A stretch of DNA of 64,000 bases from NCBI GenBank assembly GCA_045629745.1, contig JAZQRU010000045.1:9051-73050 (forward strand). The letters run 5' to 3'. Below are positions 22,527-58,762 of this stretch, piece by piece (positions within the stretch are counted from its first letter, which is position 1; each line of letters begins with the position of its first letter). The notes below the pieces were generated by a model. It searched no databases. It saw nothing but the letters and a program-made list of their open reading frames with translations, and had not been told where the DNA came from. The translations under genes and the position numbers were made by a program. Source of the stretch: Eubacteriales bacterium (GTDB taxonomy: Bacteria > Bacillota > Clostridia > Oscillospirales > CAG-272).

Positions 22527-22651
22527 AAACAAAAAGGCACCACACGGTGCCCAGACGGTCGGCCGTAGCCGAAGAGAGCTGAACTAACAAGTCTTTCGGC
22601 TATAAAAGCCCTGTTCCACCATAGTTATCTATGCTCCGTCAGTTGCAGGGC
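22527..22651 (-). promoter_or_regulatory. ZTP (pfl) riboswitch with overlapping intrinsic terminator
   Basis: Minus strand GCCCUGcaACUGACGG...GGAACAGGGC (P1/P2), a linker hairpin, then GCCGACCGUCUGGGC (P3/pseudoknot) overlapping the terminator GGCACCguguGGUGCC-UUUUU. Directly upstream of pflB. Confidence 0.9.
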
Positions 22652-22802
22652 GCAGAAATATTATACTATATATTGATGCCTTTGTCAATAATTTTCCTAT
22701 ATTTTGTGTTTAAAAAATTTTTTATCGGTAGTTCATAAAAGAATCTTGAAAAAGGAAATAAAAAATGTTAATATTTATATATAATGAATTCGGAGGAAAA
22801 CT

Positions 22803-50047: not shown

Positions 50048-50458
50048 TTACTTCAAAATGCCAAATTGTATCAAAGCAAAAATGGTTATAAACGCTAATC
50101 CAAGAATGATAAAAATTATGCCGACGCCAATATATTCTCGCTTTTCTGATTTTGTCCAATCTCTTCTTGGATTGATATTTTGAAAAGGGATATGACTTGT
50201 AAGCTGTAATGAAACGAGGACATGCTTAAACTCAAGAACCGTGCCGATTATATCGTAAACACCTACGCAAAACATTGTTATGCCTGCAGATAGAAATGTG
50301 ACGAATCCTTGGATTTCGGGTTCAGTATTTACCAAATTTCAAATTCCAAAAACAATAGCAGGTATCAGCAACATAATCACAATACTGCCCCAACGCCATA
50401 AATATCCAAAAGTAATAGCTCGTCGTTCTTTTTTTGAATAAGAAGTTCCTTTTTTCAT
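50048..50458 (-). pseudogene. Membrane protein interrupted by an in-frame TGA
   Basis: ATG at 50458 with an AAAGGAG RBS: MKKGTSYSKKERRAITFGYLWRWG...VFGI*NLVNTEPEIQGF...; the stop is at 50339-50341. Confidence 0.65.
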
Positions 50459-50535
50459 ATACTCTCCTTTCGATATGTTATACTAAACTGCTGTAAAATG
50501 CACTTTCGAGTTTTGCTCAAAAGTAACATTTGTCC

Positions 50536-50889
50536 TCAATTGTTCCCCTTTGCGGTGGTGATGGATTTGACAAGCATACGACGAATAACACCACATTCTT
50601 GCAAAAGTTCTTTGGCTATTTGCTCACTAATTGCATTTGAGCCGACAAGCATTTCAATCCAATATTCTGTTTCACCACATTCTTTGAGGGCAATATGAAA
50701 TTTGTTTATAAAGTCCGCTTTGCTTGCCGCATAGTTGGCTTCGTGGATGTTTGCACCGATAGAAGTCGCACTCCTAACAATTTGATTGACAAGCACACCT
50801 CTGCCTTTTCGTGTATCTACATCGTCGCAGACGGCAATTATATGTAAGGCAAGAGCCTTTGCTCTTGTACGCAATTCGGAATCTTTAAT
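50536..50889 (-). CDS. Four-helix-bundle protein (Avd / 23S rRNA IVP / S23-like), probable ATT start
   Basis: NQIVRSATSIGANIHEA....SKADFINKFHIALKECGETEYW...IRRMLVKSI. AGGAG lies 7 nt before ATT(50889), giving 117 aa. Confidence 0.9.
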   Translation of the reverse strand: MKDSELRTRAKALALHIIAVCDDVDTRKGRGVLVNQIVRSATSIGANIHEANYAASKADFINKFHIALKECGETEYWIEMLVGSNAISEQIAKELLQECGVIRRMLVKSITTAKGNN

Positions 50890-50913
50890 TATTGTTCTCC
50901 TTTTTGGTGTTTG

Positions 50914-51090
50914 GTGAAGTTTTTGCTTCGCAAAAGTGAAGTTGCTCACTCTGTTCGTAGTGAAGTTTTGCTCGCTATGCTCGCAAAGTGAAGTTAAGTT
51001 TGCCCCACTTCGCCGTCAGGCGAAACTTCACTCACGCAGTGAACTTCACTGCCAAAGGCAACTTCACTTGCCCGCAAGGGCAAACTTAGT
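50914..51090. repeat. Bipartite array of 8-nt repeats with unique, mostly hairpin-forming spacers
   Basis: GTGAAGTT at 50914, 50936, 50960 and 50988; AACTTCAC at 51024, 51042 and 51060; a degenerate AACTTAG at 51083. Confidence 0.9.
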
Positions 51091-51091
51091 T

Positions 51092-51131
51092 GTTGAAACT
51101 ATTGTTTGCAAAGACAAACAATAGTTTCAAC
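51092..51131. repeat. 17-bp perfect inverted repeat across the rlmD stop (att-like site)
   Basis: GTTGAAACTATTGTTTG-caaaga-CAAACAATAGTTTCAAC. Confidence 0.8.
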
Positions 51132-52469
51132 GTGTCCCGTCATAGGAAACATATCCACCGTAAAGACCGTATCACCGATGTAGCCAAGCTCCTTGAATTG
51201 CAGCATATCGCGCGCAAGAGTTGCGGGATTGCACGAAACGTAGATGATTTTGCGCGGATTTAATCTAGCGATAAATTCATTAAGCTTTTTGTCGCTTCCT
51301 GCACGCGGCGGGTCTAAAATTACGACGTCGGGTATTATTTTTTCTCCGCGTTCGCGTTCTGCCGCCTCGAGTATTTTCTCAGATTCCTTTGCGTCGCTTG
51401 CGTAAAAGCTTGCGTTGTCAATTCCGTTGAGCTTCGCGTTGCGCTTAGCTCGCATAACGGCGTCGGGCACGATTTCAATGCCGATAAGCTCACGGCAATC
51501 ACTTGCCATTGAAAGTCCTATTGAGCCGAGACCGCAGTAAAGGTCGAGGAGTGTGTCGCTTTTTTTGAGGCTTGCAAGCTCGCGAGCCATACCGTATATG
51601 ATTTCACAGCTTGCGTGATTTACCTGATAAAACGACGGCGCGCTTACTTCAAGCTTCGTGCCTGCAAGGGTATCTACTATATAATCTCTGCCGTATACCG
51701 TGCGCCACGTGTCACCGAGTATTACGTTTGTTTTTTTCGTATTTGTATTTATAAGGAAACCCTTTATTTCGGGGTGCCTCGTAGAAAGCTCGGATTTGAA
51801 AAAATCTTCACCCGTGAGGGCGCTTCCGTTAATCGTAAGCGCTAAAAGCACTTCGGAAAAGTCGTCGTTTGCGCGAAGATATATGTGCCGCAAAAGTCCC
51901 TCGCCGCGCTCCTCGTCGTAAACGGAAATTTGCGTTTTTTTAAAAATGGTTTTAAGCGTATAAAGTATATCGGAAAAACCGCCCTTTGCAAGAGGACATT
52001 CTATTGCGGGGATAACGCGGTGCGTTTTTGGTGCGTAAAATCCTATAAGGTACTCGCCGTTTTTGTCTTTTGCAACGGGATACTGGGCTTTGTTTCTGTA
52101 ATGAGTGGGTAGGGGGGATGCTTTTGTGTCCATAATCTTGATTTCGGAAAGCCCCGCCTTTTTGAAAATAGCCTCGACGTTTTCTTTCTTTAAAGAAAGC
52201 TCGTCTTCATATGAAAGATTCTTATAGGGGCACGCGCGGCAAAGCTTATTTTCGCATCTCGCGTCGCAGCGCTTTTCAGATGGGAGAATCAGCTTTTCGA
52301 GCTTTCCGACGGCGTACGAAGACGTAATTTTTATAATTTTCGCAAGAACCTTGTCGCCGGGAACGGTATGACTTACAAAAATTACCTGTCCGTCGATTTT
52401 TCCAACGCCAAAGCCGAGGTTCGTTATATCGTTTATTTCAAGCTCAACGCTTGAATTCTTCTTAAGCAA
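51099..52469 (-). CDS. rlmD: 23S rRNA (uracil-1939-C5)-methyltransferase
   Basis: TRAM domain, YRNKAQYP, SFYQVN, DLYCGLG, DPPRAG, YVSCNPATLARD and DMFP.T.HVE motifs. Confidence 0.93.
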   Translation of the reverse strand: MLKKNSSVELEINDITNLGFGVGKIDGQVIFVSHTVPGDKVLAKIIKITSSYAVGKLEKLILPSEKRCDARCENKLCRACPYKNLSYEDELSLKKENVEAIFKKAGLSEIKIMDTKASPLPTHYRNKAQYPVAKDKNGEYLIGFYAPKTHRVIPAIECPLAKGGFSDILYTLKTIFKKTQISVYDEERGEGLLRHIYLRANDDFSEVLLALTINGSALTGEDFFKSELSTRHPEIKGFLINTNTKKTNVILGDTWRTVYGRDYIVDTLAGTKLEVSAPSFYQVNHASCEIIYGMARELASLKKSDTLLDLYCGLGSIGLSMASDCRELIGIEIVPDAVMRAKRNAKLNGIDNASFYASDAKESEKILEAAERERGEKIIPDVVILDPPRAGSDKKLNEFIARLNPRKIIYVSCNPATLARDMLQFKELGYIGDTVFTVDMFPMTGHVETIVCLCKQ

Positions 52470-52537
52470 GGCTGGTTCTCCTTTCAAAAAACGGGTACGG
52501 GTGTTAAAATATTTTTCAAGACGTAAACAATTATTTA

Positions 52538-53502: not shown

Positions 53503-53577
53503 GGCTCGTTGGTCAAGCGGCTAAGACACGGCCCTCTCAAGGCTGAAACGGGAGTTCGATTCTCCCACGAGTCACCA
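53503..53577 (+). tRNA. tRNA-Glu (anticodon CTC)
   Basis: GGCTCGT/ACGAGTC acceptor stem, anticodon arm CGGCC-ctCTCaa-GGCTG, T-arm GGGAG-TTCGATT-CTCCC, encoded CCA. Promoter TTGACA-17-TAGAAT upstream. Confidence 0.95.
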
Positions 53578-53660: not shown

Positions 53661-54308
53661 ATTATTTGCCTTTTGAATGAGTCAAAGAGGCGAACAAATC
53701 TCTCTTTTGAAAATGGTCATGGCGTGCGGAGGTCGCATATCCACGCTCAGAGAGCGAGCGTGGATATCTTGCGAGCGCGGAGCAAATAACTTTACTGTGT
53801 ATACCCGTATAAATGGCAAAGAGCAAAATCCCGCGCCGCAAATTCTCCCACGAGTTTGCCGCTCGGGTTGAAGCTAATATCAAATTACACGGTCTTACGC
53901 GGCTTTACGTATATCTCCGAGCTGGCAATATACCGCCTTTGGCGGTATGCACCATGAAGAATCATTGAAAATAATGTCAATTCTTTTTAACTTTTCTGGA
54001 AGAATCTCACTCCGCAACGAGCGCAAAGCGCGATGTTGCGGAGTCCGCATATGCCGCGCAAAGCGCGTAGTGAAACGGCGTGAAAGTGTAAGAAAACAAC
54101 TAAATGTTGTTTTCCCTTGAGCGTGACCGAGCCGTAGCGAGAACAAGCTTGATTGTAAGCGGCAAGCGAGCATATATTCGCCGTGGGAGAAATTCTCCGT
54201 AGGCATCAACGAGCTCTGCACTATTGACTGATTATTAGTTTTTTTGAATGAATTAAACAGGCGAAAGAAACTTTCTATAAGAATTCGTCATAGCGTGCGG
54301 AGTTCGCA
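53661..54308. repeat. Non-coding mosaic repeat region downstream of tRNA-Glu
   Basis: Diverged ~78-bp direct repeats (53661-53738, 54231-54308) and a 14-bp copy of the tRNA 3' end at 53842-53855. Confidence 0.6.
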
Positions 54309-54511
54309 TGGGGCTAGCTCATTAAGCTAGCCCCTCTGTTTTTTAATAAAATTCATAAAATATTTAAAATTGCTTTTTTAAAACTCAAATAATTGAAATT
54401 ATTGTATATATTCAATAAAAATTCAAAATGAAATTTTGCCTATTTGCCTATAGGTTTTTTGCGCGTTATATGCTATAATATAATAAAAAATAAAAACTCA
54501 GAGGAAAAGTT

Positions 54512-57500
54512 ATGAAAAAACTTGGCAAAATTCTCATATTCGCGCTCTCACTTGTGATAGCGCTGAGTGCTTTTGCAATTGCTTCGAGCGCTGATACTTC
54601 TCCGTTTCTTGTAGAAGGTCTTTATCGCGAGAGCTGGGAAGAGGCTATCGAAAACGCTTATATCAAGGGCGATAGAGTTGTTCCCGTAGAGCTTCTCAAG
54701 GATTACGAAGCAAACGGCGAAATTGTTGAAATCACCGAATCCGTGGTGATTTCACTTAACGGATATACTCTTAAATCGGCGGCGGGAGCACCCCTTTTCT
54801 CCGTCTCCGGAAAGGATACAACGCTTACCATTAAGGGCCCCGGTGCGATTTCTTGTGCCGGCACTTTGGTTGAGGTTCAAAGCGGTGCTCTCGTTTTTGA
54901 CGCATCGGAAGCTCTTACGATAACTTCCACGGGCAGTGACAGCGTAGCAGTTGTCGGCGGCGGTGAAGAAAAGGCTTACGCAAGCGTTAAAGGTAACCTT
55001 GATTTTCAATCAAGCGCAGGAAGCCTTTTTGAAATGGCGTCAGGCTCTGAGTTCAAGCTTGAAACGGACAACGGTGTAAGCGCAAAGCCCACCGCAACGG
55101 CAACCGACGGCTTTGCAATAGTTATCGCAAACTCAGGCTCAAAGGTTAACGTTTCCGGAGGCAGCCTTGCGAACTCCGGCGGTTACATATTTAAAATAGG
55201 TGACGACACCGAGCACGAAAATCCTGTTAGCATTAAATGTGAGAGCGCAGTTCTCGTTTCCAACTCGAGCACTTACGGCTCTATCGTTGAGGCAGGCTCT
55301 GCCTATGCAAACGTAGACGTACGTTACTCCGAGGTTTTAGCTTCGGGCGGTGCATTCACCTCGGATAATACTCTCGCTGATTTTGAGGGCGAGGGACGCG
55401 ACAAGGTTTACGCGAAGCCCACTCTCAAGGTTAACTTCGTAGTAAGCACTTATAACGTCAGCGAAAATCCGAATGCAAACGCGAGCCTTTTCTGCGGTAA
55501 CGTTACTGGTATCGTTGCCGCATCTGAAATATGGAATACCGAAAACTCCTTTATAGCTATTAACACACGTCTTTGGGACGGTGAGTGCGGCGTGCTTCTT
55601 AAGAAGGGAAACAAGCTTTCCGTAACGAGCAAAATGCCCGTATCCGATACTAAAGCTCCTGCTAAAGACGAAGACGGTGTTACCGTTTACTTTACTCCCG
55701 GTGCAGCTACCAATAACAACTTTTCCTTAGAAACTATAGACGGCAAATCCTGCGATTTATATAAAGCTACTGACGTTACGGCAGACAGCAGCCTCATAAG
55801 TTATTATCTAGTAACGAATGAGATTTCTTCTTTCGTTGACGCAGAGTATAGCTCTAATTTTAACGATCCTAACGGAATTCACCCGCTGGTGGATTCTATC
55901 ACCTCACAGTATGGCTCAATAATCTACGAGACCTCGAAGGATAAGGACGGCAAGGATAACAGATACTTTAAGTGGGAATACGACGTAAGCAAGAACGATC
56001 AGTATTCATTCGATTCGGGCGGCTCCTACTTCGACCTTGATGCAGGAGGAAGCTACGGAGCTACTCGTGGATTTAATGCAATTGTTGATAATGAGTATAT
56101 AACATGGGATTTCGATATTACTTCTTCAAACGGTACGTATTCATCCGCAACTCTTAGGATGTTCATAAGAGAAAATGGCGGAAGCAGTTATACTGGCTAC
56201 TTCGCCTCCATTACGAATAACACTTTCAAATTAAGCAATGCACCCAGTGCTGCGATTCCCAAGCTTCCGGTGACACCTTACGAGTGGGCACATATAACCC
56301 TCGTTCTTGAAATTGATTCAAGCGGTGCTTACGAGGATGGCGGAGTTACCTGCTACCCAAATCTCTGTAATTCAAAAATTCACCTTTTTTATAACGGCGT
56401 ATATTATTACTCCACCGCGATGTTCAGCGACCTTATCGAGAGCGAAGACGGAATCAAGAATAGCGCTCAATTCTCTCTTGACGCTATCCGTTTCCGTCTT
56501 AGCGCAGGTCCTTCTGTTGACAAGACTAAGTCTACCTCTATCCTCATTGACAACAGCATACTTACCTACTATCCCAAGGGATATACGGGCAACGTTTCTG
56601 AGGCTGAAAAGGCAGCATTATATGACAAGACTAAGGAATACTATAACTACAAGACAACGTGCGAAGAGAATGGTGTTCCCGTAGCAAAAAACCTTAGAGA
56701 TTTTGTCGGTGATATGAAAATCACGCTTTCAGACGTGCTTATCAACAAGTCTATAATGAGCATTAAGGATGCTTGCGACGTTGTTTATAAGAAGGGCTAC
56801 CGTATGCCCGGCGCAGGCGTTATTGACACTGACGACCGTCCTGTTAAAGCAGTTGTTGACGGAGTAAAGTACTATGAGATTGAAGAGGCCCTCAGAGCTA
56901 TTGTCGACGGCTCCGAAGTATATCTATATACAGACGTCGATATTGAATACAACGCAAACTTGTCGTTTACCGTTTATACGAAGAAAGAGGACGGCGGAGA
57001 ATATAAGTTCAACGTTTTGTCAGACTCATACTACGTCTCCGAAGTTCGCGAGAACGGTGAGGTAGTTGGATACAAAACATTGCTTGCAAATACCTTTATC
57101 ACTGTCTATTGGCAGATAAACACCGGTTACCAAACTCAAGTTCCTCTCGGAATAGTTCCGACTTACGACTGGGTAATTCCTTCACCGAGTTATGACGAAC
57201 AAGGAAGATATATAGAGCTTCTTGGCTGGTCGAGCGACAAGAACGCAACTGAGCCAGAAGAATTAGGCTCAATAACTAAAGACGACCTTATTAAAGGCTA
57301 TAAGATTTACTATCCCGTTATGGGTGTCACCAGAGTTCCCGTAAGCTTCCTTGATGCGTACGGCAATCCCGCTAAGGATACAGATGGAAACCCGGTTGTT
57401 AAGGAAATCCCCGTAGGAACTCCCGAAGCCGAGCTTAATAAGTATTTTGACGGTTCAAATATGCCTGCATTCCAGATTCCCGACAACGACTGGTATGAAA

Positions 57501-58762
57501 AATGCTTCAGCGCTTGGTCTATTCCCGGCGATGTCGTTGGCAGAGAACTTATAACGGCAACACCCGAATTTTCAGAGGTTCGCATTAAAGCGAGCGCTAT
57601 AAAAACTAGCTTCTCAATTGTAAGACTTATTGACTTCTCTCCCACACTCTACATTTTGAAGCCCGATGCGGATTCGATTCCTGCCGATTCGGTTGACAAG
57701 GTTCAGTTTAAAGGCTTCTCTTTTGACGAAAAAGATGTTTTAGATTCAAGTAACCAGTACGTTTACGATAACGTAAAAATCGGTGATAACGTTTACTACA
57801 AGCTTAATTTATCAAAATCCGGTCACTTTGGTAAACCGAGCGCCCAAAATCTTCAGGATTTCAAGGTTTACGTTCATTATACCTATGAGGGTGTTACGAA
57901 GGTTGAAAGTATAACGCTTAGCCTTTCCTCGTATCTTGAGGCGGCATTTAATGCTGGAACCAATAAGGAGGAGAAATCTGCAATTATCGAGATTATGCGA
58001 CTTATAATGGCTTATCTCGAGCTTGCAGAAAACACCGACGCAAGTGTATATGCGACCTGCGCGAAATACGTGAACGACTCGAAATATGCAGAATATCTCA
58101 GTGAGTATACTAAGGCGATAGATTCCATATCTTCTGAAAAGAAAGCTGCAAATGCGACAATGCTTGAAAGCCTTTACGAGCACGCAGAGGATAATATCAG
58201 ATGGAACTTCGTTACTAACGTTATAAGCTTTACACCTAAAAAGGAAAAATATCCGAGACTCTCAAACGATTGGACTCCTGCAAAGGAAGAAGATGACGGT
58301 GTAGTGGTTAGAATTGTTACTACGAATTCGCTGGAAATGGGCGATGCATTAGATAAGGCTGCAGGCACTTATACTTTTGGCTTAGGTTTCGATTCTGTCA
58401 AAAGCACAAGAACGTCAATGATTACGGCTTATGATACCAGTACTGCTAATAATGCGAAAGATATGATAGGCTTTGACTTCCTTAACGAATATTATGTAGA
58501 CGCAAGAACGAAGTTGCACACCCAGTACTACAACCTCACGGCTCATATCACCGAGCTTACAAGGCGTATTGACGAAATTAAAGACGATGCAGATCAAGCT
58601 GCTCTTAAGGCCGAGCTTGAAGCGGAGCTTAAGATGGCAGAGATTATCCTTTCAACTCACGTGGCTCTTCAGAAGTGCACGTTTGAAAGCAGCTCAAATG
58701 GCGCGCCTATTGAAATTCCGGGTACAGTTATTCCTCCCGCAGTTGCTTTACCTAAGCGATAA
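54512..58762 (+). CDS. Large secreted/cell-surface protein (1416 aa), function unknown
   Basis: Signal peptide MKKLGKILIFALSLVIALSAFAIASSA; beta-rich N-terminus; WAHITLV...IHLFYNG (LamG-like) segment; GWS/AWS segments resembling B-repeats. Confidence 0.8.
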   Translation: MKKLGKILIFALSLVIALSAFAIASSADTSPFLVEGLYRESWEEAIENAYIKGDRVVPVELLKDYEANGEIVEITESVVISLNGYTLKSAAGAPLFSVSGKDTTLTIKGPGAISCAGTLVEVQSGALVFDASEALTITSTGSDSVAVVGGGEEKAYASVKGNLDFQSSAGSLFEMASGSEFKLETDNGVSAKPTATATDGFAIVIANSGSKVNVSGGSLANSGGYIFKIGDDTEHENPVSIKCESAVLVSNSSTYGSIVEAGSAYANVDVRYSEVLASGGAFTSDNTLADFEGEGRDKVYAKPTLKVNFVVSTYNVSENPNANASLFCGNVTGIVAASEIWNTENSFIAINTRLWDGECGVLLKKGNKLSVTSKMPVSDTKAPAKDEDGVTVYFTPGAATNNNFSLETIDGKSCDLYKATDVTADSSLISYYLVTNEISSFVDAEYSSNFNDPNGIHPLVDSITSQYGSIIYETSKDKDGKDNRYFKWEYDVSKNDQYSFDSGGSYFDLDAGGSYGATRGFNAIVDNEYITWDFDITSSNGTYSSATLRMFIRENGGSSYTGYFASITNNTFKLSNAPSAAIPKLPVTPYEWAHITLVLEIDSSGAYEDGGVTCYPNLCNSKIHLFYNGVYYYSTAMFSDLIESEDGIKNSAQFSLDAIRFRLSAGPSVDKTKSTSILIDNSILTYYPKGYTGNVSEAEKAALYDKTKEYYNYKTTCEENGVPVAKNLRDFVGDMKITLSDVLINKSIMSIKDACDVVYKKGYRMPGAGVIDTDDRPVKAVVDGVKYYEIEEALRAIVDGSEVYLYTDVDIEYNANLSFTVYTKKEDGGEYKFNVLSDSYYVSEVRENGEVVGYKTLLANTFITVYWQINTGYQTQVPLGIVPTYDWVIPSPSYDEQGRYIELLGWSSDKNATEPEELGSITKDDLIKGYKIYYPVMGVTRVPVSFLDAYGNPAKDTDGNPVVKEIPVGTPEAELNKYFDGSNMPAFQIPDNDWYEKCFSAWSIPGDVVGRELITATPEFSEVRIKASAIKTSFSIVRLIDFSPTLYILKPDADSIPADSVDKVQFKGFSFDEKDVLDSSNQYVYDNVKIGDNVYYKLNLSKSGHFGKPSAQNLQDFKVYVHYTYEGVTKVESITLSLSSYLEAAFNAGTNKEEKSAIIEIMRLIMAYLELAENTDASVYATCAKYVNDSKYAEYLSEYTKAIDSISSEKKAANATMLESLYEHAEDNIRWNFVTNVISFTPKKEKYPRLSNDWTPAKEEDDGVVVRIVTTNSLEMGDALDKAAGTYTFGLGFDSVKSTRTSMITAYDTSTANNAKDMIGFDFLNEYYVDARTKLHTQYYNLTAHITELTRRIDEIKDDADQAALKAELEAELKMAEIILSTHVALQKCTFESSSNGAPIEIPGTVIPPAVALPKR

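Follow-up and report, generated by a model that had tools for sequence, protein, structure and literature searches.

What is the repeat array that separates an RNA methyltransferase gene from a small four-helix-bundle gene at 50536-51131 of the window (the whole 64,000-nt stretch of assembly GCA_045629745.1 analysed here), and do array and gene belong together? Both bordering genes are on the minus strand, with an RlmD/RumA-type (uracil-5) RNA methyltransferase gene (rlmD, 51099..52487; TRAM and tRNA_U5-meth_tr domains) upstream of the array and the four-helix-bundle gene (50536..50889; 117 codons plus stop), a member of PF05635 (23S_rRNA_IVP/Avd-like), downstream of it. The initial annotation reported four copies of GTGAAGTT on the plus strand (at 50914, 50936, 50960 and 50988) followed by three of the reverse complement, AACTTCAC (at 51024, 51042 and 51060), and both runs are present at exactly those positions, with start-to-start steps of 22, 24 and 28, then 18 and 18. 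There are eight copies of GTGAAGTT in the 64-kb window as against a mean of 1.74 in 100 dinucleotide-preserving shuffles of it, none of which reaches eight; these shuffles and the flank samples from both sets of relatives described below rule out chance or low complexity as the source of the array. It had also been proposed that most of the spacers between these linkers are mini-hairpins, and five of the seven are indeed the hairpins listed; the spacers at 50944-50959 and 50968-50987 fold less neatly alone. A repeat scan of 50850-51150 returned the array alone.

The arrangement is clearest on the minus strand, where a 17-bp hairpin with the rlmD stop is followed in order by CTAAGTT, three copies of GTGAAGTT, GGGCAAACTTA, four copies of AACTTCAC, GGAG and ATT AAA GAT. 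The hairpin (51092..51131, minus strand), the 5′ arm of which codes for the last RlmD residues and the stop codon, is the left end of a cassette that lies behind its host gene, rlmD. The distal half-array (51020..51092, minus strand) opens with an eighth, degenerate linker, CTAAGTT, and continues with the three GTGAAGTT linkers with hairpins between them. The centre segment GGGCAAACTTA (50995..51005, minus strand) is complementary to the array start at 51078-51088 (11 nt, 100% complementary in an inverted-repeat scan), and the proximal half-array (50914..50995, minus strand), with four AACTTCAC linkers on the strand of the gene and variable spacers between them, stops 12 nt short of the ribosome-binding site. 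Pairing of at least 9 nt between array start and centre recurs in 68 of 82 arrays compared with 63 of 820 mismatched controls; which sequence is paired varies from cassette to cassette. Half-arrays in relatives have 3–5 linkers each, and every linker within one array is the same word.

Five close relatives can be aligned with the window array, and in these, identity to the window is 97.9% over the linker columns and 71.6% over the spacer columns, with some hairpins swapped outright. On this alignment the linkers evidently stay fixed and the hairpin spacers change fast. The left hairpin was likewise followed in relatives, where it accompanies every array behind rlmD and is missing at empty sites. 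In the window it includes the sequence TTTGTCT; 26 of 97 arrays have the core of this, TTGTCT, in their left hairpin, as against an expectation of 0.013 per flank. We considered whether TTTGTCT-topped hairpins are a general terminator type and rejected this, there being 12 loose matches in the genome, none of them followed by an array within the flank covered.

The gene scores above the PF05635 cut-off (E 5.7e-24; 84.8 bits with a cut-off of 33.8; profile positions 2–105 of 106), and the product also gives profile matches to PDB entries 2rld (E 3.8e-38) and 2gsc, each of which has five chains and carries only an "uncharacterised" annotation. The conserved helix contains the motif R...S...N..E, with R37, S41, N45 and E48 invariant in the protein alignment, and the invariant polar residues overall are Q34, S38, S41, N45, E48, D57 and E71. 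Translation would begin at an ATT codon (50889-50887) located 7 nt after GGAG (50900-50897). Five aligned relatives have ATG in the column of this ATT, so we place the gene at 50536-50889 and regard its start codon as either unusual or damaged; a weak start codon may be in use, or decay may be under way, and the gene may be poorly expressed. That R...S...N..E is the conserved motif of PF05635 is described in PMC3936711, the reference list of which includes a title referring to five four-helix bundles.

The cassette lies between rlmD and a membrane-protein gene, and the wider flanking genes encode peptidases, an AraC-type regulator and tRNA-Glu. The earlier statement that no reverse transcriptase is near the locus holds for the entire assembly (94.5% complete), which has no RVT_1 match. 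An Rfam scan of the whole window returned no rRNA, and scanning 50300-51300 for promoters and terminators gave no convincing candidate within the array. Elsewhere in the window we note a pair of 68-nt direct repeats (53671-53738 and 54242-54309; 78% identical, 571 nt apart) in a 0.9-kb non-coding stretch behind tRNA-Glu(CTC) (53503-53577), a 1416-residue secreted-looking protein (54512-58762) with no Pfam match at E ≤ 0.001, and a ZMP/ZTP riboswitch match at 22542-22656 (minus strand) that scores 39.4 bits with a gathering score of 39.

The distal half-array corresponds to a motif that is already catalogued. Over 51020-51092 (minus strand) it matches Rfam Gut-1 (RF01706) at 51.6 bits (gathering score 50; model positions 1–77), and the alignment includes three hairpins and the linker GUGAAGU, a one-base variant of UGAAAU; the proximal half gives a weak match on the plus strand at 25.3 bits, below the cut-off of 50. 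The window array is a copy of this little-understood hairpin repeat of gut Clostridia. The array is thus not peculiar to this gene pairing, being both a catalogued motif and a genome-wide repeat. Gut-1 was described as a candidate non-coding RNA found in human-gut environmental sequence only, and the relevant sections of that paper give no link to a gene (Weinberg et al. 2010, PMC2864571). The window motif shares with Gut-1 its three small hairpins, the constant UGAAAU-like linker and its occurrence in gut metagenome bacteria, but differs in that its linker is GUGAAGUU, that it is one of the two halves of an inverted array that also has a closing segment, and that it is multi-copy and stands in front of a PF05635 gene. 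Literature searches on Gut-1, on the names and accessions of the PF05635 family, and on HEPN with intervening sequences returned no paper linking the motif to the protein.

That array and gene belong together is borne out by two sets of relatives. Flanks were scored for one 6-mer repeated at 12–48-nt steps and then its reverse complement, with a threshold of at least 5. Among PF05635 genes from 61 related genomes (102 of 103 matches fetched, one weak match being left out), a two-part array is present in 52 of 89 upstream flanks and in 1 of 99 downstream flanks, and random windows of GCA_045629745.1 reach the threshold in 6 of 3000 cases. A second, independent set of 80 named loci from metagenome-assembled genomes (MAGs), found with a 7-protein profile, has such arrays in 46 of 74 upstream flanks and in 0 of 79 downstream flanks; these upstream counts are lower bounds because the criterion requires exact words. 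Where both flanks are present, the array is on the upstream side only in 94 of 157 genes. Of the 24 other families of the order, 10 have both Gut-1 and PF05635, 10 have neither, 2 have only Gut-1 and 2 have only the protein; related genomes not being independent, we attach no P value to these figures. Array and gene are passed on and exchanged as one unit, and the segment 50536-51131 is one complete copy of a ~0.6-kb cassette common in uncultured gut Clostridia.

Comparison of homologues, suggested earlier as a way of asking whether the motif changes with the protein clade, reveals clade-specific linkers. The proteins of the window's type (NQIVRSAT) are accompanied by the linker word AGTGAAGTT, NQIVRSSSS proteins by TCGATATG, FQIRKSSSS proteins by TATATCATCA, NQ[VL]LRSGT...AAS proteins by CATGAATTG, NQLERS proteins by [AG]TGAAAT and NQLLRSCSS proteins by GCGATAT. 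The linker word differs between cassette types and follows the protein clade, although not one-to-one: GTGATA-type words accompany two distant clades, and the clade ISNQIGRS is accompanied by five related words. As the gene adjoins the array, shared descent of the cassette would give such tracking without recognition.

Clades without hairpin arrays have tandem heptamers or inverted heptamer arms flanking the gene, a modest signal at 11 of 63 compared with 6 of 157. Examples in the canonical PF05635 clades (L009, L010 and L012) have tandem heptamers upstream and their reverse complements downstream, as with AGTTG six times upstream and CAACT five times downstream, or CATAA and TTATG. Upstream heptamers with downstream complements mean that the gene is enclosed by inverted repeats, a layout shared with rRNA intervening sequences. 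Intervening sequences of 23S rRNA with a PF05635 ORF are known for Leptospira and Coxiella, the association of such sequences with an S23p/PF05635 ORF reportedly going back to Ralph and McClelland in 1993 (cited in PMC3936711). They share with the cassette the protein family, complementary repeat arms and insertion in or behind genes for stable RNAs or rRNA-modifying enzymes; judged by their description, they differ in that the window copy is not inside an rRNA gene and has both arms, interrupted by mini-hairpins, upstream of the ORF. Avd of diversity-generating retroelements (DGRs), which is pentameric and binds nucleic acid, belongs to the same Pfam family and is likewise a small four-helix bundle, but here no reverse transcriptase was found in the assembly and no template/variable repeat pair was seen.

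The rlmD locus was compared across related genomes for empty sites, as had been proposed, and sister genomes have different cassettes, decayed copies or none. A PF05635 gene is directly downstream in 9 of 30 rlmD loci, and within the genus there are five linker types behind rlmD, four of which occur together with a protein clade of their own. At this site G007 has an array without a gene, G018 an array with an unrelated small ORF, G019 a PF05635 gene with an internal deletion and G015 a scar; G009, G022 and the other families examined, except G038, have neither hairpin nor array, and G001 has no hairpin and no F-half, with a GCGATAT-type R-array ~0.45 kb further downstream. Sisters in the RlmD tree that carry different cassettes include G019/G021 (support 100), G023/G020 (99) and G012/G005 (97). 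The presence of different, decayed or no cassettes behind rlmD in sister genomes indicates that the unit turns over. Two functions had been guessed for the array, and "cis element of a minimal mobile unit" fits this turnover better than "autoregulatory leader". The G016 locus (L127) contains a second, partial rlmD 3′ end ~0.25 kb behind the real one and preceding a TCGATAT-type array, and looks like an insertion stacked on an insertion.

Genes for tRNAs provide a further set of sites. Among 182 PF05635 loci, scanned where the upstream flank was at least 60 nt, 29 are directly behind rlmD and 58 behind a tRNA gene, and the same terminator hairpin plus array is found behind genes for tRNA-Gly, tRNA-Trp, tRNA-Ser and tRNA-Val. 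Insertion of the integrase type at tRNA genes was rejected as an explanation, since the tRNA 3′ end is duplicated downstream (at least 16 of 20 nt) in only 2 of 56 tRNA-linked cassettes. In seven loci (L015, L027, L037, L080, L082, L089 and L097) the right flank begins with TAATTTTC, one start being slightly different; this shared flank occupies the first 70 nt after the stop, accompanies cassettes of different words behind different tRNA genes, and contains both a TATAAT-like box and a CCTTTCGG...CCGAAAGG hairpin. This flank may be part of the cassette and serve as an outward-facing promoter or leader.

What, then, reads the linkers? A reading to which we give about an even chance is that the PF05635 protein, as an oligomer, reads the linkers of its own cassette, each subunit taking one linker of a folded single strand. 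The word is constrained in a cassette-specific way, PF05635 is the sole gene of the cassette and its solved relatives have five chains, and it is these that lead us to favour reading of one linker per subunit. Each subunit would hold one of the 4–5 linkers of a half-array, the hairpins would serve as compact spacers on the single strand, be it RNA or DNA, and binding would perhaps serve the keeping or moving of the cassette, a role that we prefer to simple autoregulation; arrays that lack a gene would have decayed or be non-autonomous. TRAP on the trp leader and similar ring proteins bind spaced short repeats, and by analogy each subunit of an oligomeric ring would here recognise a short word along a single strand, although the fold of the window protein is unrelated to TRAP and there is no evidence of regulation at this locus. 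Against such a reader stand the perfect linkers of orphan arrays, the mapping that is not one-to-one, the ATT start and the lack of a known DNA-moving catalytic motif; we know of no catalytic motif described for PF05635, nor of one in it that could move DNA.

The strongest competitor, which we consider rather unlikely, is that the arrays are self-standing REP- or MITE-like repeats located by terminators and kept or spread by host factors or another enzyme, the PF05635 gene being a passenger and not the reader of the linkers. The distribution of orphan arrays speaks for it. The window's genome (1.54 Mb, 52 contigs) has 17 Gut-1 matches at E ≤ 1 and 32 clusters of at least three TGAA[AG]T words, where five shuffles give 3–10, and there are ~20 arrays as against only two PF05635 genes. 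It has 35 windows with TGAAAT three times, yet no NQLERS-type gene was found, and it also carries single arrays of the words ATGATG and CGATAT. Exact GTGAAGTT clusters are limited to two, the window and a gene-less paralogous copy on contig C42. Most array copies are without a four-helix-bundle gene, an outcome that the initial annotation had itself named as speaking against the pairing.

Related genomes give the same picture. Gut-1 matches are present in 43 of the 61, with up to 36 in each and often at contig ends; G004, G020 and G038 have 17, 7 and 28 windows with GCGATAT three times and no NQLLRSCSS-type gene was found in them; G004 has at least five identical 61-nt array pieces; and G011 contains several TGAAAT sub-words together, its only PF05635 gene being of the GCGATAT type. 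That orphan arrays need a cognate gene in the same genome is not supported, their linkers being perfect even where no PF05635 gene of the matching clade was found. The assemblies are, however, incomplete and break at array repeats, which weakens the objection from orphans and does not remove it. The passenger gene also leaves unexplained why a clade keeps its word across different hosts and insertion sites, why array-less clades have other heptamer arrays and why the array is upstream only in so many genes, and several of the orphans at rlmD are visibly decayed cassettes (the deleted gene of G019 and the scar of G015).

Some individual copies deserve mention. The second PF05635 gene of GCA_045629745.1 (C42:79634-79933) has an in-frame TAG and lies behind a tRNA gene with no hairpin array; upstream of it are pyrimidine-rich repeats of the CTCTTCAC type with a purine-rich complement, and downstream is a remnant of an ATATCA/TGATAT array. 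In G023 (C68:8828-9292) seven overlapping Gut-1 matches ~64 nt apart form a long unbroken run of linkers and hairpins, as against the usual 3–5 per half. On contig C32 (12300-13723) an IS200-type Y1 transposase gene adjoins an orphan two-part array of the word AATGATGT, which abuts a bidirectional terminator. This is the one Y1_Tnp gene of the genome, ordinary IS200-type as judged from its translation, and its position beside an ATGATG-type orphan array is a point in favour of repeats spread by another enzyme.

The closest parallel to such a distribution is the REP/RAYT system (REPINs), in which hairpin repeats are dispersed between genes, a single-copy gene stands beside inverted cognate repeats, the repeat class tracks the protein clade and orphan repeats far outnumber the gene. 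The cassettes resemble it in each of these respects. They differ in that their only gene is PF05635 and not a Y1/HUH enzyme, that the conserved part is the single-stranded linker and not the hairpin, and that the one Y1_Tnp gene of this genome is accompanied by an orphan array of an unrelated type. Extending the reader proposal, PF05635 genes with word arrays could constitute an undescribed class of self-propagating cassette in which a pentameric, non-enzymatic-looking bundle recruits host machinery, which is speculative and in our estimation unlikely. The bundle would recognise a programmable word of 7–9 nt shown several times on a folded single strand, and host machinery would insert, replace or excise the cassette behind terminator hairpins at genes for tRNAs, rlmD and rRNAs; rRNA intervening sequences, Gut-1 and DGR Avd would then be three faces of one recognition system.

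A different role would follow if the array worked only as transcribed RNA, as a 5′ leader made by read-through from rlmD, with its sense and antisense halves paired and the protein binding it to set its own translation or processing, by analogy perhaps with the excision of an rRNA intervening sequence at its stem. The position of the array just ahead of the ribosome-binding site and the absence of a T-run after the rlmD hairpin would suit such a leader, as would the inverted heptamer arms that flank the gene in canonical clades, and the sense strand of the array region folds far better than shuffles (-95 kcal/mol, z -7.4). Rfam also models Gut-1 as an RNA, with covarying hairpins according to the portion of PMC2864571 that treats it. 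But the antisense strand does equally well (-94.2 kcal/mol, z -6.7), and G-T pairs are rare and similar on both strands (32 of 828 pairs and 21 of 802). In most tRNA-linked cassettes the array is placed after an A-run/hairpin/T-run terminator, and in L021, L029 and L032 a promoter-like sequence, identified by eye, lies between array and ribosome-binding site. Autoregulation moreover gives the orphan arrays no role, and altogether we regard an RNA-only leader as very unlikely.

Two further observations concern strand and expression. The initial annotation had the polarity of the hairpin loops flip at the centre of the array, and of this only a weak trend survives among 148 hairpins: on the sense strand TTC and TGC loops number 15 in distal halves as against 5 for GAA and GCA, and in proximal halves GAA and GCA number 17 as against 9 for TTC and TGC. 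Triloops make up 99 of the 148 and are closed mostly by C-G. In RNA libraries, represented by assembled contigs that do not show strand or ends, shares are at most 0.13; four of them contain short pieces 90–95% alike that come from relatives and other array copies, and none of the pieces in these four contig-level libraries spans rlmD, array and gene.

Finally, membership of PF05635 in the HEPN clan is not borne out by the relevant passages of PMC3710099, in which the family goes unnamed, and it is highly improbable that the protein is a nuclease cutting at the linkers to free hairpin units, like Cas6 on CRISPR repeats or ToxN on ToxI repeats: the invariant polar residues, the constant repeats with fast-changing spacers that resemble a processed array, and the occurrence of the family in cas loci beside Cas4 and Cas6 (PMC3936711) would fit, but no catalytic motif is described for the family, and the annotation of its solved relatives goes no further than uncharacterised.

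Since 2010 the RNA motif Gut-1 has had no function assigned to it, and the large PF05635 family, of which two structures are solved, includes both the rRNA intervening-sequence proteins and Avd. Outside retroelements it has, to our knowledge, no known role. The clade-matched coupling described here gives each of them a candidate partner, and more than ten natural pairs of word and protein would constitute a ready-made specificity series. Turnover of the cassettes behind rlmD and tRNA genes points to movement of a small DNA unit without a recognisable transposase or integrase.
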